From assembly GCA_964013565.1 (NCBI GenBank), contig CAXGWU010000001.1:93601-157600 (forward strand): DNA of 64,000 nucleotides. The letters run 5' to 3'. Of the stretch, positions 2,449 through 52,861 are shown piece after piece (the first letter of the stretch is position 1; each line of letters opens with the position of its first letter). The stretch comes from an uncultured Oligoflexia bacterium (lineage in GTDB: Bacteria; Bdellovibrionota; UBA1018; UBA6935). The position numbers were made by a program, and so were the translations under genes. The notes beneath the pieces were generated by a model. That model was not told the DNA's origin. It worked only from the letters and a program-made list of their open reading frames with translations, and searched no databases.

Positions 2449-3030
2449 ATGGAAAAAAATTCGCAACACGATCACGGGGGAGTGAATGATCCAGTCGGAT
2501 CTCATTCCGAATATTATCTTCACTTTCTTCAATCACAAAAGGATTCGGAAGGTCGACTGTTTTCTGATATTCAGACCGTTCTTGTTGTTCTCTCAGCGGC
2601 AGGAATGATTTTTGACCTTGAAGGCCTTCGGCAAAAAATTATCCATGCTTATCCTGGAGCGGCTGTTTTTTTTAAAAGTACCTCAGGAGATGATATGGGA
2701 ACTCCTGCTCCACAAAAGGTTGATCTTTTAATTGATTTAACTGGGCCACGACAACGTCAAGGATGGTTCTACGCAAAAAAATTAAGAAAACAGGCAAAGT
2801 ATGCTGTTGGTAGAAATGTGGGACTCTTTCGAAAAAAAATCTATGATCGCATTTACGATGAAAAGGCCCAGATCGGATTAACTAGAGATATTCTAAAAAG
2901 AGAAGAAATTGTTCAAAAAGAAGTTCTTTCCTTGGCTGGAATTTCTTTTGCTCCGGTGTCTTCTGCTACCCCTGATCGCTCAAAAGAGATTGCGAGGAAT
3001 TTACCTAAAACAGGTTACCTTCCTCGATAG
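2449..3030 (+). CDS. hypothetical protein
   Basis: 193-aa ORF divergent from elbB and immediately upstream of ccsB. No motif confidently recognised. Confidence 0.4.
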   Translation: MEKNSQHDHGGVNDPVGSHSEYYLHFLQSQKDSEGRLFSDIQTVLVVLSAAGMIFDLEGLRQKIIHAYPGAAVFFKSTSGDDMGTPAPQKVDLLIDLTGPRQRQGWFYAKKLRKQAKYAVGRNVGLFRKKIYDRIYDEKAQIGLTRDILKREEIVQKEVLSLAGISFAPVSSATPDRSKEIARNLPKTGYLPR

Positions 3031-3054
3031 TAAGCCATTATTTCTGGAGTTTCT

Positions 3055-4455
3055 ATGAACGCATTGTTTCGTTTTTTAAGTTCTTTGAAGCTCGCGGTGA
3101 TCACCATCGTTGGGATTGCTATTGCACTGACAGTCGCTACTTTTCTGGAATCTTGGTATGACACTCGGACTGCGCGATTTTGGGTGTATCGGTCCTTTTG
3201 GTTTTATGGGATTTTGGCTTTATTAGGGGTAAATATTTTTGCGGTAATGGTTGATCGTTGGCCGTGGAAAAAACGACATCTTCCTTTCTTACTCGCACAT
3301 ATTGGAATTTTAATGTTGCTCTTTGGATCTTGGATGACCTATCAATCCGGACTCGATGGCTCTTTGATGTTGGAGGAGGGGCAGTCTTCTCCAAGAGTAG
3401 AACTCGAAGAAAACGTCCTCGTGCTTATTGATTCAATGAAAACCCAAATTCTACCCATTGAATGGAAGCCTGCTCATTATCCTTTTGAACCTTATTCTTT
3501 AGGTTCTTTCGATTTGGAAATGGATCAATGGATTTCTCATGCAGAACCTAAGATTCAATTTTCTAAAGCTCAGTCAGATGAACCTCCTGCAATTGAATTA
3601 GTAATTGAGGGAGGACCAATGAATTTTGAAAAGGCAATTTGGTTATTTGCTGGTGATCAAAATTGGAGCACTCTTTCTTTGGGACCGGCACAATTTACAC
3701 TGTTTCCAGTCAGTGTTGGTGTTGATGTGAAACAGTTATTTTCAGTACCGATTCGTAAAAATCATGCCTTTTTTTGGAGAGGAAAGAAAAACGAACTGCA
3801 TTATAGAATTTACTCAAAAGATGGAACTTATATGGGTGGAAGTCTATCTGAAAAATCTCAAGAAACTGTTTTGAGTACGGGCTGGATGAAGCAGATTAAA
3901 GAACTGAAACTACGCGTTCGTCAGTGGATGCCTCATGCATTAAACGAGACTTCCTATCATCCTGCAAGGGTTCAAAAAGGACCCGATGCTCCACCTTCAG
4001 CGATTCATTTAAGAGTGAAGGGAAAGTCCTCTGTGGGGGTATGGCTTGGTTTAGGAGATCGAGCAGTTTTAGATACGGGTGAAACAGAAATCCAAATTCA
4101 GTACCGTAGAAAACAAGTGATGCTTCCTTTTAGTTTGCACTTAGAAGAGTTTAAGATTCAAAATTATCAAGGAACTTATAATCCTGCGATGTACTCTTCA
4201 TTTGTAAGAGTCATTGACGAAAATGCACCTCAAGAAAAAATTGAAATTAAAATGAATGATCCATTAAAATGGAAGGGGTTCACTTTTTTTCAATCGAGTT
4301 ATGTTCCTGCACGACCTAGACCTACGATTTCGATTTTTACAGTGAATCAGGATCCAGGTCGATTCATGAAGTACTTGGGATCTATTTTGTTAGTTTTAGG
4401 TTCTGCACTTTTATTTATTCGAAAATACGTTGGAAAAAAGGGGAAAATATCATGA
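3055..4455 (+). CDS. ccsB: cytochrome c biogenesis protein ResB/CcsB (system II)
   Basis: N-terminal TM helices, a large periplasmic domain and C-terminal TM helices. MNALFRFLSSLKLAVITIVGIAIAL matches the ResB N-terminus. Overlaps ccsA by 4 nt, suggesting translational coupling. Confidence 0.8.
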   Translation: MNALFRFLSSLKLAVITIVGIAIALTVATFLESWYDTRTARFWVYRSFWFYGILALLGVNIFAVMVDRWPWKKRHLPFLLAHIGILMLLFGSWMTYQSGLDGSLMLEEGQSSPRVELEENVLVLIDSMKTQILPIEWKPAHYPFEPYSLGSFDLEMDQWISHAEPKIQFSKAQSDEPPAIELVIEGGPMNFEKAIWLFAGDQNWSTLSLGPAQFTLFPVSVGVDVKQLFSVPIRKNHAFFWRGKKNELHYRIYSKDGTYMGGSLSEKSQETVLSTGWMKQIKELKLRVRQWMPHALNETSYHPARVQKGPDAPPSAIHLRVKGKSSVGVWLGLGDRAVLDTGETEIQIQYRRKQVMLPFSLHLEEFKIQNYQGTYNPAMYSSFVRVIDENAPQEKIEIKMNDPLKWKGFTFFQSSYVPARPRPTISIFTVNQDPGRFMKYLGSILLVLGSALLFIRKYVGKKGKIS

Positions 4456-8310: not shown

Positions 8311-9795
8311 TTATCGTTTACTGTTAAAAGACAAAAATACACGATTGCATTTTAAATTTTCCCAGCTTTTTTGGTGATCTTGATAAGATTTCACAAGGTT
8401 ATCCAGTATTCTGTTTTTGAAAGGAGCCTTTTCAGAGAAAATTCTTGTTACTTTTTTGCTTGTCATTGAAATTTTTTGAATCAATGTAAAAAGGGTTACC
8501 GAAGGCTGAACGTCTCTTAGAACAGTATTGAGAATGTTTTCAAATTCTTTAGAGGAGATTTTCTTGTTTTTTCGTGCTACGGCTGTTTGTTCAAGAACGA
8601 GAAGAGGGATCCAGCGGTTTTTATAGTTTTTTGAAATTCTATGATAGAATTCAAAAAATTTAGAAATATCTTGTTTTTTACTTTCTTTGTTGAATGGTTT
8701 GTAAAAATTAGCAATTTCAGAATTGATAGATTCAATGTTTATTTTTTCTTTTTCCATTTTTAAAAGTAAATCTTCTTCATAATTCTTTTTTGAGATTCTT
8801 TTTTTTGTCCTATTCTTGATTTTGAATTGGTAGCCTAGCGCTTGAGCTTTTTTTATGACTTCCGCTAAAAAAGAATCGCTTGTAACAAGTTCGTAAATCG
8901 CTTTTTGATATCTAAGGAGATTCATTCTTACATCCGAAGACTTGGGGCCGAGTGACTTGGCGTAGCTATGATTGTTTTTATCTGTTGTAATTTCTGCAAA
9001 GCTTTGATTCCACGCGCCTACATAATGTTCATATCCAACTTCAGCAAACTTTGTTGAGACTTGATCATAGTAGTGAAGAGGAACGATGTTTTTATGATAT
9101 TCTGTTTGATCTGCTTGTTCTAAATTTTTTAATGTAGTTTCTTGAATTTTTCTTTTTTCCTTTAGTTCATATATGGATTCTCGAAAGGTTGGGGCAACTA
9201 CGCCTATAAAATAAAGTCGAGAAATGATGTCTTTGAGGTTTCCCCCGGAGTTTTCGTAGAGTCGGTACATTGCAGCAAGACAAGCTCGTCCTTGTCGTCC
9301 ATTTCCTTTAGAAACGGTGTCTACGAGTATGAGAGGTCTACCATTCATTCCATTTTTTAAGTCAAACCCTTTGCTTTTAAAAAGGCTATAGATTTGTTCG
9401 TCTGTAGGGTTGAATTTTGGACTAAAATCAGGATCCATTCCAAAAGTTGCTTTACTCATCCCCACTCTAATTACTTTATTGGGTTCTCCGATGCTATTGA
9501 AAAACCCTTCAATAATATCTGAAAATATTAGACTATCTCGACCTAAGAAGCCAAAAACTGCGTCTGGATAGATAAAAGATAAATGAGCGATAAATCTTGG
9601 TGCCTCTTTTTCTATAAATTGAAACCAATCAGGAAAAGGATTGTTTCCAGGAATTTCTTTTAAAACAGATTCCACCTTCTTCATAGATGGTCTTACGTTT
9701 TGATTGATTAAATTATTAATATCTTGGTCTTTTTGAGTCCAAGATAACATAGGAGAAAATAAGATAAGTAAGGCAATATATATTTTTGTTTTCAT
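8311..9795 (-). CDS. secreted hypothetical protein; member of an FxGRD / hhhDxSxxG paralog family
   Basis: Signal peptide MKTKIYIALLILFSPMLSW. The N-terminal region (…FGFLGRDSLIF… LILVDTVSKGNGRQGRACLAAMYRLYE…) is alignable with 13234-15192 and 16931-18463. Last gene of the seven-gene secreted operon. Confidence 0.55.
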   Translation of the reverse strand: MKTKIYIALLILFSPMLSWTQKDQDINNLINQNVRPSMKKVESVLKEIPGNNPFPDWFQFIEKEAPRFIAHLSFIYPDAVFGFLGRDSLIFSDIIEGFFNSIGEPNKVIRVGMSKATFGMDPDFSPKFNPTDEQIYSLFKSKGFDLKNGMNGRPLILVDTVSKGNGRQGRACLAAMYRLYENSGGNLKDIISRLYFIGVVAPTFRESIYELKEKRKIQETTLKNLEQADQTEYHKNIVPLHYYDQVSTKFAEVGYEHYVGAWNQSFAEITTDKNNHSYAKSLGPKSSDVRMNLLRYQKAIYELVTSDSFLAEVIKKAQALGYQFKIKNRTKKRISKKNYEEDLLLKMEKEKINIESINSEIANFYKPFNKESKKQDISKFFEFYHRISKNYKNRWIPLLVLEQTAVARKNKKISSKEFENILNTVLRDVQPSVTLFTLIQKISMTSKKVTRIFSEKAPFKNRILDNLVKSYQDHQKSWENLKCNRVFLSFNSKR

Positions 9796-9797
9796 TT

Positions 9798-11288
9798 CTA
9801 TTTTCCTCTCATGAGTGCAATTGCATCTTCTTCTGAATCAATAAGATGAATTCTTCTTTTTAACCATTCAGGGTAATGATCAGAGATTAAGTTTTTAAGT
9901 AACGGTTTATAGAATTCGCTATTTATAAAAGCTAATTGAGAGCGCTTATTTGGATTTCCAGAAAAATCAACAAAAGTTGTTGCTAGTTCTTTCATCGTTC
10001 CATTGCCTCCAGGTCCTACAAAAATAAGGTCTTTGTCGTGCAGTAAAAAAGGAATTCGTGTTTCATAATCCATTGATTCAATGACAAATCTTTTATTGCT
10101 AAAAGAATAAGATTTCCCAATGATAATATCGATGGCAGTTCCTCCATTATCAATGCTTGCATTTGCTGCGGCTTCCATGAGGCCACCCCCCCCACCGCTT
10201 GATAAGATATATTTATTTTTTGCAGAAACTTTAGCTACGAGTTGAACTAGTTGTCTCCAGCGATAGTCAAACGAACTAGACCCAAAAAAAACCGCTTTTT
10301 TATGATCTTTCAAACTTTCAGAAATATAATCTATATCTTCAATTCCAGCTAAGTAATTAGAGATGATTAATTTAAAACTATAATCAAATTGATGACTAAA
10401 CTTTTCTTCGTTGAAAGGAATAATGCTTTTATATCTATTGGGACCCGGAGTAATAAAACTTAAGTCATTTTTAATTTTTAAGTATGAAGACTTAAATTTT
10501 CCTAATGCTTTGAAATTTAAAAAGTCTGAATCCCATTCATTTTTATAGTTAATGAGGAAATCTAGTTTATCGATTAAATGAAGAGCTAAGGCTGTAACAG
10601 AACGAGTATCACCTACTGACTTTCCTATAGAAAAAGCTTTAAGTCTTAAGTAAGGATTTTCAATTGCAATGATGTTTTCATTTAAATTTTCTTTATTTGG
10701 GTCCGCAGTAATGCCTACTCCAAGTTTCCCTAATGTTTTTTGTATATCTTTCGCTGATATTGAATCTGCATCGTAGAAAAATATTTGAGAAAAATTAGAT
10801 AGTGTTTTTTTGAGTGAATTGAGATCGACTGTGGTTGGGTAATCGGTGGTTCCAAAAAGAAGAGTGTATGGATTCATATTGGAAAACGAATCTAACCACT
10901 TAAATCTCATAAGATCTGAAAGAAATGATTTTGATTGATCTTTTCTATCTAATTTAAAAATTTCCTCTATTGATAATTCTTGAGGTTTACTACTTTTTGA
11001 TGGAAGTTTTCTATTCTTGTTTTCGTAATGACTATTGGAATAACCTTTATAAGAATATGGGCTGTCTGTATCTAGACTTGTAACTGGAGATTGATAATCA
11101 AATTGGTATGTGTTGTTAACAGCAATCTCACTTATATCAGGAACTTCATCAATTTTAGGTGGTTTGATTCCGTGAATTCCAAAAACTAAAGCGCATTGAG
11201 AAGAAAATAAATGGTCCAAATTAGAAGTAGCGTTGGATGTTAATGTATAGATGATACCTACTATAGATATCAAAAAAAGATTTTTCAT
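9798..11288 (-). CDS. secreted protein with a C-terminal LOG-family (TIGR00730-like) domain
   Basis: Signal peptide. The C-terminus carries AVFFGSSS… ILSSGGGGGLMEAAANASIDNGGTAIDII… RIPFLLHDKDLIFVGPGGNGTMKEL, which matches the LOG GGGxGLMxA and PGGxGTxxE motifs. Overlaps the upstream gene by 4 nt. Confidence 0.65.
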   Translation of the reverse strand: MKNLFLISIVGIIYTLTSNATSNLDHLFSSQCALVFGIHGIKPPKIDEVPDISEIAVNNTYQFDYQSPVTSLDTDSPYSYKGYSNSHYENKNRKLPSKSSKPQELSIEEIFKLDRKDQSKSFLSDLMRFKWLDSFSNMNPYTLLFGTTDYPTTVDLNSLKKTLSNFSQIFFYDADSISAKDIQKTLGKLGVGITADPNKENLNENIIAIENPYLRLKAFSIGKSVGDTRSVTALALHLIDKLDFLINYKNEWDSDFLNFKALGKFKSSYLKIKNDLSFITPGPNRYKSIIPFNEEKFSHQFDYSFKLIISNYLAGIEDIDYISESLKDHKKAVFFGSSSFDYRWRQLVQLVAKVSAKNKYILSSGGGGGLMEAAANASIDNGGTAIDIIIGKSYSFSNKRFVIESMDYETRIPFLLHDKDLIFVGPGGNGTMKELATTFVDFSGNPNKRSQLAFINSEFYKPLLKNLISDHYPEWLKRRIHLIDSEEDAIALMRGK

Positions 11289-13237
11289 TTTATGTCCCCA
11301 ATAAAATTTTTCTCACATTTTTCCTCAATATCTCCATTAATTACTTCTTTTATAAATGTTTTTTTTATGTGAAGAGATTGAGCCCATTTATTTCCGAGTT
11401 CATCTAAATAGAGGAGTCTAGTTTCGGTATCTGTGGTTGTCGGAATGAGATGACCGTAGTACCAAAGGCTCCACGTTCCATTGTGAAAATATAAACTATC
11501 TGGAGTTAAACCGTGAATATATAGATTTAAATGAACTAGATGATCAAAAAAATCCGCAAGTGCTGTCCATGCAATTGTTTCATGAATTGGAACCGCTGCT
11601 TTATTTGAAAGCTCTCTTAAAGAAACTCCTTGTGGTTCATCTATCGCAACAAAATAAAGACTGTTTCTTATCTTAGAAACAATAATTCTATTCTCTTGTA
11701 GGTGCAATAGCTCATAGTATGAAGGTGTTCCTGGGTCAAACCTAAAGATCACTTGTTTTAAATTTTTTTCTTTTTGAATGATTTCATATTTTTTCAATTC
11801 TCCAATGTTCACTTTTTTTGGCGAAGAATTAATAAAAGGAGGCTCTTTTTTTATGTCATTATTTTCATAATTTAATTCATTACTTTTTTTTCGTCTTTTC
11901 TTTTTGGGACCTTTTGAATGATTTTGGAAGTTTTGTTTATCTAGTAATTCTTTCCAAAATAAATCAATTTCTTTTTTTTTGCTTTTAAGTTCTTCTCTTA
12001 ACCATTTTGTTTTTAGTTTGTTTGAGTATTCATTTAGAGTTCTATGTTTGCTGAAAAAAGTTCTAATTGGTCCGCTATCAACTATTTGCCATTCTTTTCC
12101 ATCAAAAATAAGATTGTCAGGGTTTAATCCGGAGACATAAATGTATTTTTCAGAAGCTTTAATGAAAAATTTTTCTAGTGCTAATTTTTTTGGGTTATTT
12201 TTTGTGTCTAAAATTTTTTCATCGAGAATCGCTTCTCTTAATCGAGTTCCTTCAATGAAATTCATAAGTAGAGACTTTTTATCTGTACTCCATTTCACAT
12301 TAACTGAAGACAGACCGTTTTTTCTCCATTCTTCTGATAGCTCTATCTGTTTTTTGAAACTTTTTTGAATATCCGCACTATCGTTTACTGGAACTTTCCA
12401 AGCCCATAGTTCTCCATTTGAGTCCTTTAACTGATGAACTCTACCTGTTTTTCCAACGCCTACGGCTTCTTTTTCTAATGAGTAACCTTCCGGAATATCG
12501 ACCTCTTTAACTGAGTTAATGAGAGCTAATAATTTTTCCCAGTTTTTTTCTTCAATCAAATCTTTGGCATTTTGTAAGAACTTTCTCCTTTGGCTAACTT
12601 CGGTAATGGTATTGGCTTTTTTTAGAACTTGAAAATGAATTGGTTCGAGATCAATTTTTGGGAAAACATACCGACTCAATCGCCTGAGAGTTTTTGTGTT
12701 TGCTCGGCTTGTGATAATCCAAATTAATTCAAAATCATCTCTATAAGAGGATAGAGGAAGGATATGTTTTGTAAAAGATTCTAATTCATCTAATGGTATG
12801 ATCGCTGCTGTATAACGAAGAGAAGGAAGTAAATTTTTTTCATTACTTTGAGTGAATAGTTTAAAGAGTGTAGAAAAGTTATAAATTTTTTTGTCGCTTA
12901 AAATGCCAATTAGAACATTGTTATTGTTTTTTCCTTTTTCTGAATGCAAATATTGATTAATAATGATGTCTCTTAGACAGAAACTTTCTGTCGCTAGTTT
13001 AATATAAAATTTATCAGGTGGGTTGTTTTGTGATTTAATGATTTCATCAATGATAGCTATATTCATCGCTTTATATTCATTGCTTTTCGCCAAAGATAGT
13101 TTTTTTATAACCTGAGAAATCGCCTCCCACTGTTGATTTTCGATTAGTTTTTTGAGTCGATGTGGAACCACGGTTTGAGCATGTGCTGGTATGATAAAAA
13201 ACAGACAAGCTAAATATAAGAAAATTTGTTTTTTCAT
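11285..13237 (-). CDS. secreted protein with tandem protein-kinase-like domains (atypical, possibly pseudokinase)
   Basis: Signal peptide. Domain 1: Gly-rich loop VGVGKTGRV, Lys in WAWKV, loop SGLNPDNLIF, and DSG. Domain 2: HGLTPDSLYF. Both lack a canonical HRD Asp. Confidence 0.5.
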   Translation of the reverse strand: MKKQIFLYLACLFFIIPAHAQTVVPHRLKKLIENQQWEAISQVIKKLSLAKSNEYKAMNIAIIDEIIKSQNNPPDKFYIKLATESFCLRDIIINQYLHSEKGKNNNNVLIGILSDKKIYNFSTLFKLFTQSNEKNLLPSLRYTAAIIPLDELESFTKHILPLSSYRDDFELIWIITSRANTKTLRRLSRYVFPKIDLEPIHFQVLKKANTITEVSQRRKFLQNAKDLIEEKNWEKLLALINSVKEVDIPEGYSLEKEAVGVGKTGRVHQLKDSNGELWAWKVPVNDSADIQKSFKKQIELSEEWRKNGLSSVNVKWSTDKKSLLMNFIEGTRLREAILDEKILDTKNNPKKLALEKFFIKASEKYIYVSGLNPDNLIFDGKEWQIVDSGPIRTFFSKHRTLNEYSNKLKTKWLREELKSKKKEIDLFWKELLDKQNFQNHSKGPKKKRRKKSNELNYENNDIKKEPPFINSSPKKVNIGELKKYEIIQKEKNLKQVIFRFDPGTPSYYELLHLQENRIIVSKIRNSLYFVAIDEPQGVSLRELSNKAAVPIHETIAWTALADFFDHLVHLNLYIHGLTPDSLYFHNGTWSLWYYGHLIPTTTDTETRLLYLDELGNKWAQSLHIKKTFIKEVINGDIEEKCEKNFIGDIK

Positions 13238-15192
13238 TTTTTAAGGTTTCCAGGTGTTCCAAATAGGATTTGACATGTCGAAGTACTGTTAGAACTAAAG
13301 CTCTTATTTTTACGACTGTCATGATAAAAGAACTCTTTTAAAAAATTCATATCTGAAAGCATTTCAGTTTGAGTTTTGTCTGTAAAAAAATAAGTATAAA
13401 ATCCTTTATTGAGACGTGGAGTGTAGTCTACATTAACAATTTGCTCAGCGTTATCGACCTGAAAATTTGCGGCTTTGAAGTCTAACCAAATGTTTTGTTC
13501 TGCTGCAATTTTTTTTGCGATAAGCCATTGTTCCAATACCTGGTTTTTTATTTTTTTCGGTATTTCTTCAATTGGATTTTGAGAATATTTTGCTTCTAAG
13601 TTTTTTCCGTCAAAGTAAGTTTGTTCTACAATTACCCCTGTTGGATGTGCATAAAGTATTTTTGCATGCCTAAAATTTGGATAATTTTTTAGAATTCTAT
13701 CTTGTGTCCATTTTTGCAAAAGAGATTTACGTGCATTTTTTGGGTTTTTTGTAATTTTAATAACTCTATTTTTATCACTTAAAAATACTTGTACATTTCT
13801 ACCTTCTCCTAGATATCCTTTTAACTTATAGAGGACTGCATTATTAGAGGTTAGAACCATTGGGTAATTTGGATCATCGCTTTTTTTGATTTCCAGAGAT
13901 GAAAAAAAGTCATTTGCTCCCTCTAATGGTTCCAGATATTGCCAATCTTTCATAGCACTGAAGCCTTTTTGATGGACTTCAGATATTTCCTGAAATAAGA
14001 GTTCGTTTTTGTTTAAGTCTTTTTTGTTTTTTCTTATTTTTTCTTGATTTTTAGTGGTCTTCTTTTTTACTGGAATAATTGTTTCAGCAAGTCGTAGATC
14101 AGATACTAGTCCAAGGAGTGATATAACTTTTTGAGATAGTTTTATAGGTTTGTCACTATAAATATGAAGTGACGGTTTTGTTTTAAATTTTAGTCCTGTT
14201 TGTATAAACTTATGACGATGCTCTAGTAGATTGTGAACATGATCAGCATCCCAGTGATTAATTGCTCCTGGAATAGCGATTTGAAATCGTTGAATAGAAA
14301 AAAAATAATCAGTTTCGGTGAGTTTTTTAATAGTCTCTGAAGAGAGTTCTTCGTTGTTCCTGGTGTAATTGTTGATAATATCTTTAAAAGAAGAGTTTCC
14401 ATCTACTCTTTTTGATCTCAAATATCTGAAATCTACAAGTTTCAGGAATTGAGTTGCTTCAGATTTATTTAGGTTTTCACAAATGGCTCTTAAAATTGCT
14501 CTGGGAATTTTTCCAGACATACTTGAATCCATAAATACTAAGCCATTTTTTAATAATCTCTCTTTTGTTAGTCCGATGGAATTTAATAAATGGTAAATTT
14601 CAGAAGTTTGATGGTTGAAGATTAAGTCTCTTATTTTCCTTGATACATTAAGGGTGTAAAGAAAATTTTTATCTATAGATTTTTTTAAAGAGATAAAAAG
14701 ATATGGAGCCGTAAAGTCTCTTCCTATAAAAAATAAATTTTTATTATTAAAATCTCTTTTGATTTCATTTTCTATTTGAGCGATTACAGGAATGATGACT
14801 TCTGTTTCGTATTCTTGAGTGTAACGAATAAGTTGATCTGTTATTTTTTTAGAATCAATTGAATCTAAAGAAACAACACCGATTTTTTTGTCTAATTCAA
14901 GAGCACTATTTTTAAGTTTTGAGCGTTTATTTGACCAATGAAAAAAGAGTTCATTGAAAAACTGAGTTTTTTCTTGAGTCGTTAGAGTTTTAACTTCTTC
15001 TAAAATTAAATAGATGTCATTACGAATTGACTCTAAAATATCGGTTTGAATCCATTTTTTAAGAAATTCATCGTAGCTATTAGAGTTTTGGGCTTGAAGA
15101 GCTGATTCATAGTGATTTTCTATTACATCGCTGGAAAATACATTAGTCTCAGTAAAGCAAAATAATAGAATAAATAAAATTAATTTATTCAT
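13234..15192 (-). CDS. secreted protein with an N-terminal FxGRD-family domain and a C-terminal protein-kinase-like domain
   Basis: Signal peptide. N-terminus has NLFFIGRDF… VFMDSSMSGKIPRAILRAICE, paralogous to 8311 and 16931. C-terminus has LGEGRNVQVF (Gly loop), VIKITK (Lys), DFKAANFQV (catalytic-loop-like D..K..N) and VNVDY. Confidence 0.55.
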   Translation of the reverse strand: MNKLILFILLFCFTETNVFSSDVIENHYESALQAQNSNSYDEFLKKWIQTDILESIRNDIYLILEEVKTLTTQEKTQFFNELFFHWSNKRSKLKNSALELDKKIGVVSLDSIDSKKITDQLIRYTQEYETEVIIPVIAQIENEIKRDFNNKNLFFIGRDFTAPYLFISLKKSIDKNFLYTLNVSRKIRDLIFNHQTSEIYHLLNSIGLTKERLLKNGLVFMDSSMSGKIPRAILRAICENLNKSEATQFLKLVDFRYLRSKRVDGNSSFKDIINNYTRNNEELSSETIKKLTETDYFFSIQRFQIAIPGAINHWDADHVHNLLEHRHKFIQTGLKFKTKPSLHIYSDKPIKLSQKVISLLGLVSDLRLAETIIPVKKKTTKNQEKIRKNKKDLNKNELLFQEISEVHQKGFSAMKDWQYLEPLEGANDFFSSLEIKKSDDPNYPMVLTSNNAVLYKLKGYLGEGRNVQVFLSDKNRVIKITKNPKNARKSLLQKWTQDRILKNYPNFRHAKILYAHPTGVIVEQTYFDGKNLEAKYSQNPIEEIPKKIKNQVLEQWLIAKKIAAEQNIWLDFKAANFQVDNAEQIVNVDYTPRLNKGFYTYFFTDKTQTEMLSDMNFLKEFFYHDSRKNKSFSSNSTSTCQILFGTPGNLKK

Positions 15193-16880
15193 CTTTTATT
15201 CCTCTTTTTATTAAAGAAATAAATTTCTTCATCTAAAAGGCCAAAGCTGAAGAGGGTCTCTATAGTGATTTTTAATTCAAAATCGTTTTTGACAAAATGA
15301 ATTCTATCTTTAATGAATTGCGGAATTGATGAGCTGTCGATTTGATTTTTTAAGCCACTGTAATAGTCATCACCCACAAAAATGATCTCTAATTTTTCTT
15401 TTGGGTTTTCTAGAAGTTTTAGAATCGTTATCCAAAATTCTTTCATGGTTCCAGAGCCTCCTGGAACAAAAACAACAAGTTGTTTTTCGTGAAGAAGGAG
15501 AGGGATTCGGGTTTCATATCCACTACTCGAAACGGTAAGAGAATGATGTTCTTTTTCTACTTTTTTTTCTGTTTTTAGAGTGTGTTTACCCGTGATAGGG
15601 ATCCCAACTGATGGAACATGAGATGATATTGCTGCAGTATTTGAAGTTTTCATGGCACCGCCAGCTCCGCCAGTCGTGATGCTAATATCAAGAGATCCTA
15701 AGGCGAGACCAGATTTGAAAATAAGGTTCTCAAAAGGATTCTCATCCCTTCCCGTTCCAAAAACTGCAGCTCCTCTTACTCCTGTTAAATCTTCTTGTCC
15801 GATTAGAAGTTCAGTAACTTCTTTGACGATATGATCAATTTGATAATCAGAAAGGTCTGAAAGAGTTATTTTTTTTGGTTTAAATTGTTTTGTAATTATT
15901 GGGAAAATTTCTGTCTCAACGTGAGGAGAGGTACGAATAGGCTCTCCTGCAAGGTCAAATTCTTGATTAAAGTAACTTTTACTGTAGATAGGAGATGAAG
16001 GGATTTTTTTAATCGCTGTAGTAACGGTTGTAGCTTGATCAAAAATAGGTATTTCTTTAGTTCGAACTCCCATGTTTATGTTCATAAGATCTAAGTCTTG
16101 TTTCCATTGATGAAGAGAAAAGTTCCATTCTTTTTTTGGATCAAAAATAATGTCTATTTCATTATTGAATAATCCCGCAAATCCAGTTGTGGAGTCAGGA
16201 GTTGTAATTATTTTTTCCGAGGTGTTAAATAAAGCCTGTGCTCTTAAGTAGGTGTTTTTAATGTAAACTTGGCCTCTTTGTTTTGTTGGTTGATTAGAGA
16301 TACCAAAAGATGATTTTTGAGCTAGAGATTGAATTAGTTTAGCGTAAGGACTATTTGATTCGTAGAGGATAAAATATCCACGAGAAATAAATTGAGAAAC
16401 TAATTCGGTCAATTCAGTTTGCATTTGAGGATCAGGCTGTGTTCCAGAAGTCCCTGCAAGAATCGTCACTGTTTGTTTTGAATTTAGTTTTTTTAATCTT
16501 TCTAGGTTGAGGTGATCTTGAATGTACTGACCTTCAGTAGTTAATAATACCAATTCAAGTGCTTTTAGGTTTTTTTCTCTGTTTGTTTTTTTTAGACGTT
16601 GAATCTCTGAAGTTATTTGAGCTATTTGCTTTTTTACCGATTGATTTTCTTTTTTTCCAGAATTACTAAAAATTTTTTTTAGTAATCCTCTTTGTTTTTT
16701 AGAAATTTTTTTAGTATTTAAAGACGTTAATTTTTTTTCTAATTCTTTAATCCGTTCTGACTCCTGATTTAGACTAGTTAGTCGTTCTAATGTGGATAGA
16801 CGACTTAAAAAATTTTCTTCACATCCGGCTAAAGAGAAGTGATGGGCAATTAAAGTTAAAATAATAATAAGTTTTTTCAC
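15189..16880 (-). CDS. lipoprotein with a C-terminal LOG-family domain
   Basis: Lipobox LAGC after the signal peptide. C-terminus has AAVFGTGR… ISITTGGAGGAMKTSNTAA… RIPLLLHEKQLVVFVPGGSGTMKEF (LOG motifs). Paralogous over this domain to 9798-11288. Confidence 0.65.
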   Translation of the reverse strand: MKKLIIILTLIAHHFSLAGCEENFLSRLSTLERLTSLNQESERIKELEKKLTSLNTKKISKKQRGLLKKIFSNSGKKENQSVKKQIAQITSEIQRLKKTNREKNLKALELVLLTTEGQYIQDHLNLERLKKLNSKQTVTILAGTSGTQPDPQMQTELTELVSQFISRGYFILYESNSPYAKLIQSLAQKSSFGISNQPTKQRGQVYIKNTYLRAQALFNTSEKIITTPDSTTGFAGLFNNEIDIIFDPKKEWNFSLHQWKQDLDLMNINMGVRTKEIPIFDQATTVTTAIKKIPSSPIYSKSYFNQEFDLAGEPIRTSPHVETEIFPIITKQFKPKKITLSDLSDYQIDHIVKEVTELLIGQEDLTGVRGAAVFGTGRDENPFENLIFKSGLALGSLDISITTGGAGGAMKTSNTAAISSHVPSVGIPITGKHTLKTEKKVEKEHHSLTVSSSGYETRIPLLLHEKQLVVFVPGGSGTMKEFWITILKLLENPKEKLEIIFVGDDYYSGLKNQIDSSSIPQFIKDRIHFVKNDFELKITIETLFSFGLLDEEIYFFNKKRNKR

Positions 16881-16930
16881 CGTTTATTTAGTCCTTTTTT
16901 AAAAGTAAGATTTGCTTTTTTTAAAATGAT

Positions 16931-18463
16931 TTATTTTTTATCTATTTGTGTAAAAATTCGATTACATCCAGTTTTTGTAAGATAATCTGAGATGGTTTTA
17001 GTGTGTTCCGAAATTTTCCCTCCAAATTTGTCGGAGTTTTTAAATTCATCTTCTCTTTTTTCAAACATAGATCTGAATTTTTCATCGTTTTCATAAAGCT
17101 CCCGAATAGCTTTTAGTTGATCGTCAGAAAGAGAAGGAGTGTTGCCTAGGACATAACGATAAAGTCGTTTATAATCTCTTCCTTTAATTTTCTGAGAAGC
17201 TCTTGCTCTAGTGATAGCCTGCATAAATGGGACAATGATTTTGTCTTTAAAATCTGTATTTTGAAATTGCTTTAACCATTGAAGGTAGTGATTTCCGTTG
17301 TTTGAGAGTTTGTTTGTGATTTCTCCGGGTTCATTTAAAGATTGTTCTATTTCAAAAAGGTTTTTTAGATGTTCTTTAAGTTGTTCTTGTTTTTTCTCTT
17401 CTTGAAGAGCTAATTCTTTTTTTCTTTGTTTTTTTCTTTCATTGATTTGTTGTGACGTTAGTGATTGATAAAGTTTTGAATTTCCATCTAAATCAATTTT
17501 ATAGAGTTTTAGATATTCATCTAATTTGTCTTTAAATTCATTAGATTTAATGAGTTCGATAATTATATAAATTTCTTGTAAAACAGTTTTTTTTGAAATA
17601 TTCGAAAATTGCACGCCAGAAATTGGAATAAGTTTTTCGTTTATTTCTTTAAAACCTAGCCATGAATCATGCCACTCTGAAGTCCTATGATTTATCCTAA
17701 AAAAAGTTCCATAACTTGTGCTTAATCGTGGAACCGGTACGCCGTCTATATGAGATAGTGATGATACGTTTTCGAAAAAGTTTTCCTGATCAAAGTCTTC
17801 GTTGATAGTATGTTTTAGGTTGTTGTCGCTAATATTAACAAACGCAATTTTTCCAAGAAGATCTTTTGGGTCTTTTCCTAGATTTTTGTAGGTTTCATAG
17901 AGATATCTCATCGTTAGCCTGGATTGGCTTGCTTCTCCTCCTCCTCCTCCACTGGTATAAGTTGGGCTATAGCTACTAAAATCATAGAGAACCCAAGGGG
18001 CACTTTCTGTAATGGTATCGAAGTTAATGCCTAGAGACTGAGCATATCGAACAATGGTTTCTGAGGAAGAGTTTTTAAAACTTGGAGTACTTGCGTTGAA
18101 TCTTCCTGCGCGATTAGGCTCACCTCTCAGATAGTAAAACGCTTCCAGGGCTAGACTATTTTGGATGACATCTCTTCCAAGAGAAAAATATCTTCCTCCA
18201 GGAAAGGCTTTTTCAAAACTTACAATCATTCTGGCGATATTGTTTATAGCATTAGGGTAAGCATTAGCGATAAACTCTTGATTAAGCATTTTTTCATGAC
18301 TCGGCCATGGGTTGAGTACAGTGAGCATTTCTTCGATTGTGGGAACTGTTTTTTTTTGTACTAACTCATCAATTTGATTTTCTAATTGTGTTTGATCAGA
18401 AAAAGCAAAAGAAATGAAAAGAAAGTGGAGGCTAAAAAAAATAGATTTATTTATGAGTTTCAT
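16931..18463 (-). CDS. secreted hypothetical protein; FxGRD / hhhDxSxxG paralog family member
   Basis: Start chosen at the internal Met (MKLINKSIFFSLHFLFISFAFS signal peptide) so that it abuts rather than overlaps the Prs-like gene. Carries RYFSLGRDVIQ… WVLYDFSSYSPTYTSGGGGGEASQSRLTMRYLYE. Confidence 0.5.
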   Translation of the reverse strand: MKLINKSIFFSLHFLFISFAFSDQTQLENQIDELVQKKTVPTIEEMLTVLNPWPSHEKMLNQEFIANAYPNAINNIARMIVSFEKAFPGGRYFSLGRDVIQNSLALEAFYYLRGEPNRAGRFNASTPSFKNSSSETIVRYAQSLGINFDTITESAPWVLYDFSSYSPTYTSGGGGGEASQSRLTMRYLYETYKNLGKDPKDLLGKIAFVNISDNNLKHTINEDFDQENFFENVSSLSHIDGVPVPRLSTSYGTFFRINHRTSEWHDSWLGFKEINEKLIPISGVQFSNISKKTVLQEIYIIIELIKSNEFKDKLDEYLKLYKIDLDGNSKLYQSLTSQQINERKKQRKKELALQEEKKQEQLKEHLKNLFEIEQSLNEPGEITNKLSNNGNHYLQWLKQFQNTDFKDKIIVPFMQAITRARASQKIKGRDYKRLYRYVLGNTPSLSDDQLKAIRELYENDEKFRSMFEKREDEFKNSDKFGGKISEHTKTISDYLTKTGCNRIFTQIDKK

Positions 18464-18464
18464 T

Positions 18465-19850
18465 TTATTTAATCTTTCTGCGTATAAATAACGTTTTACA
18501 AAGTGGAGTCTTTTTTTCTCCTGAAAATACAGACTGTAAAGTTTCCGAAATTTCAAAACCTAAATTTAAAACTGATATATCTGGCTGAGTAATGTTAAAT
18601 GAATTCGTCACAACCATGAGATCAATGTCTGGCGAGTCAATTGCTTTTTGAGCGTTTCCTGCAAGATGGCTAACAACACCAAATATCTTATTTGCACCAT
18701 GCTTTTTAAGAAACTCTGCTGACTCGGCAAGTGTTCCTCCAGAGGCAGTTTCGTCATCAACAATCGCTACAGTATGCCCTTTTACAGAGTCTCCACTAAT
18801 CCCGAGAATACGAGTCTCTCCAGTGAGAGGATTTCTTTTCTTATTGATAATTGCGAGGGGTAGGTGAAGTTCTTCTGCATATAAAGTAGCATCTTTTTGA
18901 AAACCAGCGTCAGGAGAAACGATAATAGAAACTCCCAGTTTCTTGAGTTCTTTATTGATTGTTTCTCTTCCGTTGATTTCAAAAACAGGGATAGAAAAAA
19001 AACCTACACTCTGAGGTGCATGCGGTCTTACAATTGTTATTGTTTTTACTCCTAGTCCCTCAATGAGGTCAGCAGTGAGTCTTCCTGTTACAGTAATTCC
19101 AAATTGATCTATCTTATCTGATCGAGCATAAGGAAGGTAGGGAGAGATCAGGTGAACTTGTTGCCACTTTGATTGAGTGCTATATATTTTATGTAAAGTA
19201 TCAAAAAATGATTTGTTTATTGGAGACTCAAGAGAAGATACATAAAATATATTGTATCCAGAGAGCTTTTTATTGTTGGGGTTCCATTCAGATTCTTGAA
19301 TGACTGGGATATTGAGTTGTTTTGATAAGGTGTCTCTCAATGAAGGGTTTGTGTCTCCTACAATTGCAAACTTTTTTTTAAAATTTTTTGTTTTTGTTTG
19401 ATATTCTGGAAAGTCATAATCTTGGTTTGCAATACGGTAAGATTCCGCCCCCGAAATTTTGAAAAGTTTTAATACAAAAGTTGAAGGTAAGGATTCAGAT
19501 TCAAAATGAACGGATATTGATAAGGCACCCATTGTTTTAGCGGTGCGAACTTTAATGAGAGCTTCCATAAGAAGGTCATCATGATCTTCAATGTTGTTTG
19601 GAATATACAGAGTTAGTTTCTGATTGATAGGATTTTTTAAAAATCGAACAAAAGTATTTCCGTTGCTAAACTCCGTTGTTTTTGTCGGAAGAATTTTACT
19701 TTCAATAGTTTCAGAATACGATTGAGTCTTTGCCTCATATCCACGAATTCCAACAAGCCATGGCTTTTTAGAAGCGATACAAACATTTGAAAAGCTAAAG
19801 CTTAAAAGAAATAAAAGTCCAAATTGTATTTTTTTTTGTGCCCCACCCAT
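18465..19850 (-). CDS. secreted ribose-phosphate pyrophosphokinase (Prs/PRPP synthetase) homolog with an N-terminal extension
   Basis: Signal peptide MGGAQKKIQFGLLFLLSFSFSNVCIA. Matches Prs landmarks: FAIVGDTNPSLRDTL…, ISPYLPYARSDK (cf. PYFGYARQDRK), RPHAPQSVGFFSIPVFEING (cf. DLHAxQIQGFFDIPVDN), IVSPDAG, AIINKKR, and PRPP loop VAIVDDETASGGT. The first ~130 aa look like a degenerate extra Prs N-half. Confidence 0.7.
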   Translation of the reverse strand: MGGAQKKIQFGLLFLLSFSFSNVCIASKKPWLVGIRGYEAKTQSYSETIESKILPTKTTEFSNGNTFVRFLKNPINQKLTLYIPNNIEDHDDLLMEALIKVRTAKTMGALSISVHFESESLPSTFVLKLFKISGAESYRIANQDYDFPEYQTKTKNFKKKFAIVGDTNPSLRDTLSKQLNIPVIQESEWNPNNKKLSGYNIFYVSSLESPINKSFFDTLHKIYSTQSKWQQVHLISPYLPYARSDKIDQFGITVTGRLTADLIEGLGVKTITIVRPHAPQSVGFFSIPVFEINGRETINKELKKLGVSIIVSPDAGFQKDATLYAEELHLPLAIINKKRNPLTGETRILGISGDSVKGHTVAIVDDETASGGTLAESAEFLKKHGANKIFGVVSHLAGNAQKAIDSPDIDLMVVTNSFNITQPDISVLNLGFEISETLQSVFSGEKKTPLCKTLFIRRKIK

Positions 19851-47659: not shown

Positions 47660-48553
47660 TTATTCAAGCGCCCAATCAAAAATTCCATGGATTCTTAATC
47701 TTCTGACTTCTTCTTTGAGTCGATCTACTTCAATTTGAAGGTCTTCGATTCTGTTGATGAACGTTGAAGCCGTAAAAAACAGGGTTTCAACGTCAATGCT
47801 TATTTGAAGAAGTGCTTTTGAGTGATTTTGCAATAACACTCGATAGTAAATTCGGGCATTTTTGAGTTCATCAATACGGTAGTTATCAATACTTAAGGCG
47901 AGATCAAAAAGTTCTTTTTCAGTAGATTCAATAATGTCGAGTTGAGTGCTTTCTAAGAGTTCAAATGGGTTGAGATAGTTTCTTCTTAAATGTTCAATGA
48001 TGAATGCGTCAATTCCCCCAATGATTCCACCTGTAAGATAGACTTGAGTTCTACCAATGAGGGTTTTTGGAAGCTCATGAGAGACAACCTTCAGTCGTCG
48101 AGAGAATTGCTCTAGGTTTGTCTTTCCTGCAGAAACCCAAGCAGATTTTTTAAATAAACCACGAGTCCATTTAAATCCATAAAACAAAGTCCAGTATACA
48201 GCAATATCTTTAAAGATAATCATGACGGGATGACGTTTCTCTTGTTCATCCAGTTCTCTTTGAATCATTGATTGTATTTGAGAGAGAAGTAAAACGGTAT
48301 TTGCTCGGTCAATCGGATTCCAGCGATAATGACTTATTAAATTAAGAAGCGTTTCATTAAAATCTTCTTTTGAAAGAGATTTAATTCTTCTGGAGAGAGC
48401 ACGGGCATGTCTGAGTTGTAGATCTTCACTCGAGGGAGAGTCGTTTTCATTTGATGAATAAGTATTAAAATAATCTTGAATCATTTGATCTGACCAAGGA
48501 GCTGCATAAGAAAATCCATGAAATAAAAAAATTCCTAATAAAAATTGAATCAT
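47660..48553 (-). CDS. hypothetical secreted protein
   Basis: Signal peptide MIQFLLGIFLFHGFSYA (start at the internal Met). No known motif. First of three co-directional AT-rich genes. Confidence 0.45.
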   Translation of the reverse strand: MIQFLLGIFLFHGFSYAAPWSDQMIQDYFNTYSSNENDSPSSEDLQLRHARALSRRIKSLSKEDFNETLLNLISHYRWNPIDRANTVLLLSQIQSMIQRELDEQEKRHPVMIIFKDIAVYWTLFYGFKWTRGLFKKSAWVSAGKTNLEQFSRRLKVVSHELPKTLIGRTQVYLTGGIIGGIDAFIIEHLRRNYLNPFELLESTQLDIIESTEKELFDLALSIDNYRIDELKNARIYYRVLLQNHSKALLQISIDVETLFFTASTFINRIEDLQIEVDRLKEEVRRLRIHGIFDWALE

Positions 48554-50019
48554 GGGGTCTCTTCTTTCCATTCATAAGTCATTTGAAGAAATTGATTAAG
48601 CATTTGATTGATTGAATGCATGTCTTGAGTCAAACGAGTAATGAGAGTTTGTTTACCTGGGAATGTATATTGGTGAAGATTTGCTATAGCATGAAGAAAA
48701 ACCGAGTTGGGATGGGAGAAGCTAGTTTGAGGTAATAAGCTATTTAAATAGCGTAGATTCATTTTTTCTACCCACTTCGAATAAAGATCTTCTTTTAGAG
48801 AAAGAAGCATGGATGATTGAATTTGTTCTTCTTGATGGGGTTTTATTTTTTGAAGGTAAAAATCTCTATAGAACCATGCAAGTTCCTTTAGGTGAGGTTC
48901 AAATGCGGCTAAAGAATACCAGTCTTTGTGAATGATGCGTTCTCGAGTTAAAAATCCAGAGTAGCCAAAATGTGAGAGCATTTTATGTTTATTAAATACA
49001 TGAAGGAGTTCTAGGAAAAGCTCATTTGATTCCTTTTTTGAAAGTTCAGTGGGGTTTTCAAATGCCTCACTGGTGAGCTCTATGGTTTCTTCATAAACAG
49101 GTTGAAATAAAAAATAAGCAAGTTTTTGAGCGTCTTTGGCGATTCTGTGTCCATAAATGGCTCTTTGATGTGGGGTAGTTGCTAATTTAAATTCATCAAT
49201 TGAACTAAGGTAATCTTTAGTGTGATTTGATTTTTTATGTTTTTGATAACGGGCATATGCTTGTTCTTCTACGAGTACGCCTGCAACAATGCTTCCAGCA
49301 AAAACAAGTGGATGAGCTTTTGCTGGTGTTGCAGCTCGATTGACTCCTCCGAACAGAAGAGCACCTCGTTGAATCATTTTTCCTATGAGTGCTTCTGCTA
49401 AGAAGCTACCGCTAACAAAACTTCCTAGTTTAAAAAATAAGTCTGTCGTTACAGGGCCATTAAGAAGAGGAAAGGGATCAGAGGGAAGAGCTTCTAATTG
49501 AATGAGATGAGAAGGGGGGGCTTTCTCTGTTGCAGATCGAGAAAGAAATTCTCCAGTAGATTTTCCAGCAACAAAGCCAACAACTGGGAGTGTGCCTCTT
49601 AAAAATTTAAAATAAGAACTTATTTTTTCTGGGTGTTTTTTTAGAATGAAGTAAAAAGCAAGGGCAAGTCCTATTCCACTTACAGTTCCAATTCCCGCTC
49701 CCGCATCGATTGTTAAATTTCGAATTCTTTGAGAGCCTTTGGCACAATGACTTTCCCAGTGTGTTTGTAGATCGATAGCAATGGATGGAAGTTTATTGGG
49801 ATCTATTTTTTCACTTAAAATGAGTAACGCATTTGAGTAGTTTTCATTGTCTAGTGAGAATACTTTTTGAATAAGTAAATCAGAAGAAATTAAGTTTTCT
49901 GTGGTTGTTTGAGCTGAGTTTACTCTAGTTATGATTTCTTCAAGTGAGTTATTAAGTGCTTTAGTTTTACAAATTCCGAAAGCGAGTTGTGGAATAAAAA
50001 AAAGAAAAAATAATTTCAT
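48550..50019 (-). CDS. hypothetical secreted protein
   Basis: Signal peptide MKLFFLFFIPQLAFG (internal Met). No known motif. Abuts the upstream gene. Confidence 0.45.
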   Translation of the reverse strand: MKLFFLFFIPQLAFGICKTKALNNSLEEIITRVNSAQTTTENLISSDLLIQKVFSLDNENYSNALLILSEKIDPNKLPSIAIDLQTHWESHCAKGSQRIRNLTIDAGAGIGTVSGIGLALAFYFILKKHPEKISSYFKFLRGTLPVVGFVAGKSTGEFLSRSATEKAPPSHLIQLEALPSDPFPLLNGPVTTDLFFKLGSFVSGSFLAEALIGKMIQRGALLFGGVNRAATPAKAHPLVFAGSIVAGVLVEEQAYARYQKHKKSNHTKDYLSSIDEFKLATTPHQRAIYGHRIAKDAQKLAYFLFQPVYEETIELTSEAFENPTELSKKESNELFLELLHVFNKHKMLSHFGYSGFLTRERIIHKDWYSLAAFEPHLKELAWFYRDFYLQKIKPHQEEQIQSSMLLSLKEDLYSKWVEKMNLRYLNSLLPQTSFSHPNSVFLHAIANLHQYTFPGKQTLITRLTQDMHSINQMLNQFLQMTYEWKEETP

Positions 50020-52649: not shown

Positions 52650-52861
52650 GGAGTTTTTATAACGCAATAAGTCATTGTTTTCAATGAAGAAGGTTCGTAG
52701 GGCCTTTGATTCAAATTTCAGGTTCGACCCATGCATTTATTTGAAATTACTATTAAAATTGTAACGATTTAGTCTGGAACTTCGAATAAGTTCTATTACA
52801 GGCGAAAAATAGTACTTCTAAAAAGGAAAGTTTGTTTCGATTGACTCGATTATCAATCTTT

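Follow-up and report, generated by a model that had tools for sequence, protein, structure and literature searches.

A probably exported minimal kinase-like domain with glycine at the catalytic aspartate position, encoded beside an intact kinase-like gene in an operon of nucleotide-related enzymes

What might a kinase-like protein do when its catalytic aspartate has been replaced, the residues that hold nucleotide and metal have been kept and the protein is very probably exported? This question is raised by a gene on a 64,000-nucleotide stretch of DNA (the window; from contig CAXGWU010000001.1) of an uncultured Oligoflexia bacterium. Positions 11285–13237 of the window coincide exactly with a single minus-strand open reading frame (ORF), encoding 650 amino acids (aa) with an ATG start and the stop codon included, and the identical gene is present on a 271 kb Tara Oceans scaffold (TARA scaffold_27) and on DKAD01000053.1 of the metagenome-assembled GCA_002450715.1. 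The product, here called the target, carries a minimal protein-kinase-like domain (D1) followed by a shorter region related to it (D2). An earlier note, made from the letters of the window, had described a secreted protein with two tandem atypical kinase-like domains that share a G-L-x-P-D-x-L-x-F catalytic-loop variant and represent an undescribed kinase-fold family. The motifs that it quoted (VGVGKTGRV, WAWKV, YVSGLNPDNLIF, IVDSGP and LYIHGLTPDSLYF) are all present; the observation was largely right and its interpretation partly right. What is new at this locus is an uncurated variant inside the known protein-kinase-like superfamily, with a conserved Asp-to-Gly catalytic loop and an all-secreted nucleotide-enzyme context.

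Homologues were collected by searching 1.84 billion cluster representatives (clusters at 50 % identity) exhaustively with HMMER, which yielded 113 non-self homologous representatives, 49 of them at E≤1e-10. All 113 match residues ~250–430 of the target and the closest ~30 also cover residues 130–250; D1-type domains are ~170–190 aa in size and the best homologue is 36 % identical to the target. Neither the target nor parts of it, searched directly against Pfam, NCBIfam and PDB sequences, gave a match, and no Pfam or NCBIfam model reached its cut-off in any member of the D1 family tested. Pfam Pkinase was reached at sub-threshold scores by 18 of 59 aligned members, with a few reaching FTA2, ABC1, RIO1 or OspG_kinase, and ten long members that were rescanned scored 19.8–24.4 bits for Pkinase against a gathering threshold of 31.7. 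A word-indexed protein search with the target returned only its own TARA fragment, a trimmed family alignment returned besides it only P0115, already one of the 113 representatives, and literature searches found no description of the D1 family or of the operon in which the target gene lies. Judged by sequence, the D1 family is a sizeable bacterial mini-kinase family outside all curated models, and many of its members have a signal-peptide-like N-terminus (at least 44 of the 100 representatives that begin with M).

Comparison of the D1-family profile with the PDB produced, at E<1, matches to 869 chains of solved kinases, headed by CIPK24 (E=4.5e-12), CaMK1D and PKA, all three within 1e-12 to 1e-10. 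These alignments run from the Gly-rich loop to the catalytic loop, where they end. The target sequence itself matched the PADLOC kinase model PD-T4-6 (E=9e-6). The nearest solved relatives by sequence are therefore ordinary Ser/Thr kinases, which indicates that the D1 family represents a divergent, minimal branch of a known superfamily rather than a fold of its own. The proposal of an undescribed kinase-fold family thus stands in so far as the family lies outside Pfam-A and NCBIfam, but it belongs to a known superfamily.

An AlphaFold2 (AF2) model built with an alignment of 59 sequences had a mean predicted local distance difference test score (pLDDT) of 80, rising above 93 across residues 140–440; a single-sequence AlphaFold run of the target gave 39. 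Foldseek comparison of the AF2 model with the PDB returned 76 matches at E≤1e-3. All 50 of the matches listed were kinases and no non-kinase fold appeared among them. The structural neighbours (score in brackets) were Bud32 (13.2 / 12.7), macrolide and aminoglycoside phosphotransferases (~12), PknB (11.4), Rio1 (11.3), OspG (11.1), NleH1 (10.9), HopBF1 (10.8) and Ark1 RNA kinases (10.1–10.6), and the best structural matches of D1 were minimal kinases (Bud32, RIO, OspG, NleH, HopBF1 and the aminoglycoside kinases). The likeness to effector kinases suggested in the earlier note was borne out by OspG, NleH1 and HopBF1, whereas Fam20, CotH and SelO, which it had also named, were absent among the structural matches listed for D1. 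In the model D1 is bilobal and protein-kinase-like, with a sheet, Gly-rich loop and alphaC helix in the N-lobe and catalytic and metal loops in the C-lobe. Only one short strand and two helices (aa 391–440, about 50 aa) follow the DFG-like motif before D1 ends. This indicates that D1, like the minimal kinases, has no activation segment or APE motif and no alphaF–alphaI helices, including the alphaF Asp.

The family alignment and the PDB profile place the Gly-rich loop, the VAIK-like lysine and the DSG motif of D1 where the earlier note had put them. The near-invariant columns of the family are G262, V267, K281, G330 (hinge), L354, N375, W383, D387 and W412. In the PDB profile alignment the family consensus vyvgDLnpkNL aligns to VYHRDLKPENL, so that the G-L-x-P-D-x-L motif occupies the HRD/catalytic-loop position, as had been claimed. 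It follows from this alignment that S369-G370-L-N-P-D-N375 of the target corresponds to the canonical loop (SGLNPDN against HRDLKPxN) and that Gly370 replaces the catalytic Asp. Under the operational definition of a pseudokinase, in which at least one of the VAIK Lys, HRD Asp and DFG Asp is missing, D1 counts as a pseudokinase by virtue of its absent HRD Asp, and so does D2. Both metal ligands, the catalytic-loop Asn (N375) and the DFG Asp (D387), are present. Conservation of the Lys–Glu salt bridge and of the metal-binding residues, which the earlier note had named as a check, was found in part: K281, N375 and D387 are kept, but the alphaC Glu is Gln297 in the target. The neighbouring D374 was considered as a shifted catalytic Asp and rejected, since it directly adjoins N375, whereas the catalytic Asp lies five residues ahead of the Asn, and ordinary kinases also have Glu or Asp there.

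The exchange is not peculiar to the target. Among the 113 representatives the HRD-Asp column holds Asp in 75, Gly in 19, Asn in eight, Ser in four and Lys in three; since 75 members have the normal Asp, the G-L-x-P-D variant marks one subclass and not the family. K281 is kept in 73 of the 75 Asp-class and 18 of the 19 Gly-class members, and the Gly class also keeps N375 (18 of 19), D387 (18 of 19) and G262 (17 of 19). The alphaC Glu is present in 61 of 75 Asp-class members and in eight of 19 in the Gly class. P283, D286, D319, S369 and R414 are conserved in the Gly class only, and its loop follows the pattern S-G-L-N-x-[ED]-N. That this pattern persists among representatives sharing no more than 50 % identity speaks for selection for function and not for decay. 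The selected function of the Gly class, as these residues indicate, needs the nucleotide- and metal-binding residues but apparently not the catalytic base. Such a pattern is typical of an ATP-binding pseudokinase, although an atypical catalytic mechanism could also explain it.

It has further been suggested, in the earlier note, that a fold of this kind might serve AMPylation. The wider possibility that D1 carries out AMPylation, another nucleotidyl transfer or glutamylation, in the manner of SelO or SidJ, has precedent in kinase-fold enzymes without canonical catalytic residues, and D1 retains the Lys and both metal ligands, Asn and Asp. However, the target has no Pfam match to those families and its sequence bears no sign of a flipped nucleotide orientation, and we consider such chemistry very improbable.

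Several known kinases resemble D1 in part. Eukaryotic-type Ser/Thr kinases (PF00069) have the same order and spacing of Gly-rich loop, Lys, catalytic-loop Asn and DFG Asp, but the target reaches no Pkinase match, its C-lobe is truncated, and the family loop reads D-L-N-x-x-N, or G-L-N-P-D-N in the target. Bud32 (of KEOPS) and RIO are cytoplasmic and universally conserved and keep the catalytic Asp, where D1 has Gly. No Kae1, Cgi121 or Pcc1 gene lies near the target gene and there is no KEOPS or ribosome context; the arch_bud32 model scored 16 bits (cut-off 125) in one homologue and RIO1 was matched by two of 59 members at E≥3e-5. Aminoglycoside and macrolide phosphotransferases (APH and MPH) differ in that APH keeps the catalytic Asp and has a distinct helical substrate-binding C-lobe, and Pfam APH was matched by one of 59 D1-family members (E=0.006). 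OspG/NleH and HopBF1 share the minimal kinase fold with D1. They are, however, type III secretion substrates without a Sec signal that act in eukaryotic hosts, whereas the target has a Sec signal, Gly at the catalytic Asp and the additional helical and D2 domains. Catalytically inactive HopBF1 is inert, and these effectors need their catalytic residues for their effects (PMC9950578). OspG_kinase (PF22303) gave no match for the target and was reached by one of 59 members at E=0.0025; no type III secretion genes were found among the annotated ORFs of the window, not every ORF having been scanned.

The second half of the protein does not repeat the first in full. D1 and D2 of the target are homologous (BLASTP E=5e-6; Smith–Waterman z=9.0, a score reached by none of 2000 shuffles). 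A family hidden Markov model built without the target scored residues 536–620 at 25–29 bits over profile positions 75–160, from the hinge to the domain end, and D2 as a lone query retrieved several family members (P0003 at 8e-7, the target's own D1 at 2e-5). In the AF2 model residues 533–646 fold like the C-lobe of D1 (pLDDT 70–87), preceded by residues 448–532 with pLDDT below 50. The D2 loop HGLTPDSL, part of the motif LYIHGLTPDSLYF (aa 572–584), has Gly at the Asp position and Ser at the Asn position, and WYYG stands in place of IDSG, so that D2 has no catalytic Asp, Asn or DFG Asp. No N-lobe, Gly-rich loop or Lys was recognisable in D2 by sequence or in the AF2 model, and a second domain was found in none of the 113 cluster representatives. 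As only the C-lobe half is detectable, D2 is a degenerate partial duplicate and not a second kinase domain; its sequence marks it as a partial internal copy, specific to this lineage, of a domain that already had no Asp, and all of its catalytic residues have gone. The earlier proposal of two functional tandem atypical kinase domains, forming a new kinase-fold family akin to Fam20, CotH and SelO, was right about the shared G-L-x-P-D-x-L-x-F motif and the real homology of the halves. It is nevertheless largely refuted by the decay of D2, by the lack of a second domain in the homologues, and by a fold and sequence that are nearest to ordinary and minimal protein kinases, and we give it scarcely any credence.

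N-terminal to D1 lies a domain that is helical throughout in the AF2 model, with pLDDT above 93 from residue ~140. Residues 131–244 of this domain (positions 12506–12847) are conserved in the closest ~30 homologues and contain an LRRxxRY motif, and L184 and R217 are invariant in a nine-sequence alignment (A2). The basic, flexible linker between D1 and D2 includes the sequence GPKKKRRKKS, which resembles a classical monopartite eukaryotic nuclear-localisation signal (cf. PKKKRKV) and is equally explicable as Lys-rich low-complexity sequence of an AT-rich gene.

The target is very probably exported, as the earlier note had stated. Its N-terminus, MKKQIFLYLACLFFIIPAHA followed by QT, has the features of a Sec-type signal peptide: a basic n-region, a mean hydropathy of 2.9 over a 10-residue window and AHA before the cut. 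The gene belongs to an operon of seven genes (Table 1), and by the same hydropathy heuristic a signal-peptide-like N-terminus is present in all seven operon proteins. PRPP (phosphoribosyl pyrophosphate) synthetase and LOG homologues are normally cytoplasmic and are ATP- or nucleotide-dependent. Signal peptides on every ATP-dependent nucleotide enzyme imply that these enzymes work outside the producer's cytoplasm.

Table 1. Positions in the window of the target gene, its parts and the surrounding operon
Feature	Residues (aa)	Position	Strand	Basis or remark
Whole target ORF		11285..13237	-	650 aa + stop; same gene called on TARA scaffold_27 and GCA_002450715.1
Sec-type signal peptide (MKKQIFLYLACLFFIIPAHA, AHA-Q cleavage motif)	1–20	13178..13237	-	Sequence, hydropathy heuristic
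N-terminal all-alpha domain	21–244	12506..13177	-	AF2 model, homologue query ranges, alignment A2
D1, minimal protein-kinase-like domain	245–440	11918..12505	-	Family profile, AF2, structural matches, PADLOC
Gly-rich loop VGVGKTGRV	259–267	12437..12463	-	G262 and V267 near-invariant in family
WAWKV	278–282	12392..12406	-	K281 is the beta3 (VAIK) lysine
Catalytic loop YVSGLNPDNLIF	367–378	12104..12139	-	G370 at HRD-Asp position; N375 (metal-binding Asn) retained
IVDSGP	385–390	12068..12085	-	D387 is the DFG-like Asp, 12 residues past N375
Linker, Lys-rich, pLDDT <50	441–532	11642..11917	-	AF2 model, sequence
GPKKKRRKKS in linker	443–452	11882..11911	-	Sequence
D2, degenerate kinase C-lobe duplicate	533–646	11300..11641	-	BLASTP, family HMM, AF2, Smith–Waterman
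Seven-gene operon including target		8311..19850	-	Prs-like, X, LOG-like, K652, target, LOG-like, X
PRPP-synthetase-like		18465–19850	-	TIGR01251 E=3.9e-53; PDB Prs E=6.5e-29
X (510 aa)		16931–18463	-	Family without known match
LOG/SLOG-like (LOG563)		15189–16880	-	Lipobox LAGC
K652, upstream partner (652 aa): signal peptide, X-like N-terminal domain, C-terminal kinase-like domain		13234..15192	-	Sequence, hhalign
LOG-like (LOG496)		9798–11288	-	Aligns to cytokinin-riboside-5'-monophosphate phosphoribohydrolase; PGGxGTxxE conserved
X (494 aa)		8311–9795	-	Family without known match

The operon is tightly packed, with intergenic gaps of at most 50 nt, and three successive ATGA overlaps join LOG563, K652, the target and LOG496. 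The ATG of the target at 13237 shares an ATGA with the stop codon of the gene upstream, and the target's own stop at 11285–11287 overlaps the start of the gene downstream. The G+C content is 31 % in the operon and 38–40 % in its flanks. The two X proteins are paralogous (E=2e-16), as are the two LOG proteins (E=1e-28). A mechanical 541-aa TTG-start ORF for the first X gene (16931–18556) would run 92 nt into the Prs gene; judging from public gene calls and the signal peptide, the real start is the ATG at 18463 (510 aa), 1 nt past the Prs stop. Promoter and terminator scans found sites no more numerous than in shuffled sequence. A reading of the operon as anti-phage defence was rejected, as PADLOC found only generic kinase and PRTase-loop similarities and universal signal peptides speak against a cytoplasmic defence.

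The gene directly upstream, K652, encodes a protein with a kinase-like domain of its own. This domain has an intact catalytic loop (LDFKAANF) followed by VDY, and the C-terminal domain of the K652 family is related to the target family (hhalign probability 97.9 %, E=3e-13). Its motifs are G-E-G-R-N-V, A-L-K-I, W-L-D-F-K-x-x-N and V-D-x-x-P-R; within the family W-L-D-F-x-x-x-N and the V-D of the metal loop do not vary, with K or R at the +2 position. K652 was matched by no curated model and in no PDB sequence search, profiles of the K652 and X families found no match among solved structures, and a scan of the genome collection with K652 found no relative; orthologues were detected in four other metagenomic loci at 31–33 % identity. 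The N-terminal half of K652 (aa ~130–270, window positions ~14380–14800) is weakly similar to the X family (hhalign E=2e-4, probability 47 %). X proteins, which have no Pfam, NCBIfam or PDB match, contain an invariant L-G-R-D and, ~65–70 residues on, hydrophobic-D-x-[ST]. X-like N-termini are also fused to several Asp-class mini-kinases, which together with K652 indicates that X and mini-kinase recur as a fused module. The spacing of the GRD loop ~65 residues before hydrophobic-D-[ST]-x-S-G recalls type I phosphoribosyltransferases, an identity that is not claimed for X.

Pairing of a K652 gene with a Gly-class gene is seen in other loci. In L003 a 652-aa K652 orthologue (32 % identity, E=4e-115) lies directly upstream of P0003, the closest homologue of the target. 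In L091 a 4-bp overlap joins the C-terminal end of a K652 orthologue (49 bits) to the Gly-class gene P0009, and P0009 is followed by a signal-peptide-bearing metallophosphoesterase gene (2565–3605) and then an X protein gene (188 bits). In L088 the Gly-class gene P0007 is divergent beside the Prs gene that heads a Prs/LOG/LOG/X-like/K652 operon, with a signal-peptide-bearing RelA/SpoT-like gene (12006–13013, minus strand) and another LOG gene on the other side. L090 has Prs/LOG/X/K652 and three more X genes with no Gly-class gene. For secreted members of the Gly class the gene directly follows a K652 gene, the two overlapping by 4 bp or lying 4 nt apart, and by the hydropathy heuristic every protein of the L088, L090 and L091 clusters has a signal-peptide-like N-terminus. 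The pairing of the target with K652 is conserved, probably with translational coupling. The RelA/SpoT-family (alarmone-synthetase-like) and metallophosphoesterase genes strengthen the impression of an exported nucleotide-modifying toolkit.

These loci also bear on whether the target is simply a decaying, functionless paralogue of the neighbouring kinase, with the Asp-to-Gly exchange as a step of degeneration. D2 is clearly a degenerate remnant, and the gene, which sits in a fast-evolving stretch of low G+C content, has no close orthologue (best 36 % identical). However, conservation of the S-G-L-N loop and of the K, N and D residues extends over 19 representatives with no more than 50 % identity, independent assemblies carry the same intact ORF, and synteny with K652 is conserved in distant genomes, all of which make decay a highly improbable account.

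Our preferred reading, held tentatively and built on sequence comparison, is that D1 binds ATP and, as a pseudokinase or a very weak atypical kinase, works as the partner of K652 in a secreted nucleotide-targeting system. D1 would bind ATP-Mg and transfer phosphate poorly or not at all, and would serve K652 as an allosteric activator, scaffold or substrate adaptor, with D2 and the helical domain as possible interaction surfaces. The working analogy is with Fam20A–Fam20C and with ROP5–ROP18 of Toxoplasma, which are described as secreted kinase/pseudokinase pairs (PMC4421793, PMC3493473) and in which a defective exported kinase fold is likewise paired with an intact exported kinase. Those, however, are eukaryotic secretory-pathway or parasite proteins with no homology to the target beyond the superfamily, and the pairing of the target with K652 is suggested by gene adjacency. 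The system would work after export into an ATP-containing compartment, for example a prey or host cell. To our knowledge the periplasm is not known to supply ATP, and the need for ATP therefore suggests that the proteins probably act once delivered into another cell. LOG and Prs could then drain or rework the nucleotide pool of that cell; that they convert ATP or AMP to adenine and PRPP there is speculation.

Rather less probable is a competent D1, an atypical kinase without the HRD Asp that would, for example, phosphorylate a nucleotide, a ribose phosphate or another acidic small-molecule acceptor as a metabolic step beside LOG and Prs, by substrate-assisted catalysis or with a relocated base such as the subclass-specific D286. 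The Gly class conserves all nucleotide- and metal-binding residues as well as the acidic D286 and D319, and the operon is centred on nucleotides (Prs at E=3.9e-53; LOG with PGGxGTxxE). Aminoglycoside and macrolide kinases and protein kinases, however, normally need the catalytic Asp. The alphaC Glu is relaxed as well (eight of 19 in the Gly class, Gln in the target), as is typical of pseudokinases, and the neighbouring gene encodes an intact paralogous kinase that already supplies the activity. For these reasons an active D1 is considered doubtful.

Several points weigh against the pseudokinase-partner reading. The signal peptides were judged by a hydropathy heuristic and not by SignalP, and the association with K652 was drawn from four loci. 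The Gly-class members P0004, P0005 and P0016 stand alone, and some high-GC members have no signal peptide. ATP binding by D1 is suggested by conserved residues; action in a prey or host is speculation, and ATP-dependent enzymes would find no evident source of ATP in the periplasm. Glycine at the catalytic-Asp position is no proof of inactivity, as some kinases and kinase-fold enzymes do without the canonical base or catalyse different reactions.

A bolder extension, which we regard as unlikely, is that the target and K652 form an exported pseudokinase–kinase pair at the regulatory or targeting core of an unrecognised secreted arsenal of nucleotide-attacking effectors. The LOG-like enzymes would split nucleoside monophosphates into base and ribose-5-phosphate, and the secreted PRPP synthetase would spend ATP to turn ribose-5-phosphate into PRPP and AMP. 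The net conversion of ATP to adenine and PRPP would deplete the adenylates of a prey or host cell. Related loci would contribute a secreted RelA/SpoT-like pyrophosphokinase, and the X domain might be a new enzyme or a substrate-binding module.

The operon is flanked by genes of aerobic housekeeping (UvrD, ThyA/DHFR, ResB/CcsA, an alternative-complex-III-like oxidoreductase, COX1, heme O synthase and acetyl-CoA synthetase). UvrD had no relative above ~44 % identity among GTDB species representatives, its matches being ~40 % identical and coming from unrelated phyla, so that the lineage appears to be poorly represented. A second low-GC patch (48550–52736, minus strand; 30.8 % G+C at 50–52 kb) holds two ORFs of 906 and 505 aa without a Pfam match. 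They have a hydrophobic segment from about residue 35 and about residue 17, respectively, and are unrelated to the kinase, X and K652 families. Rfam found no RNA genes in the 64 kb window.

The Gly subclass has exchanged the catalytic Asp while keeping the residues of ATP binding, and such cases have repeatedly led to new regulation or chemistry in the kinase fold. If the pairing with K652 is as proposed here, a secreted kinase/pseudokinase pair would be known from bacteria too, and a directly testable model would be at hand for a new route by which they may deplete or manipulate another cell's nucleotide pool.

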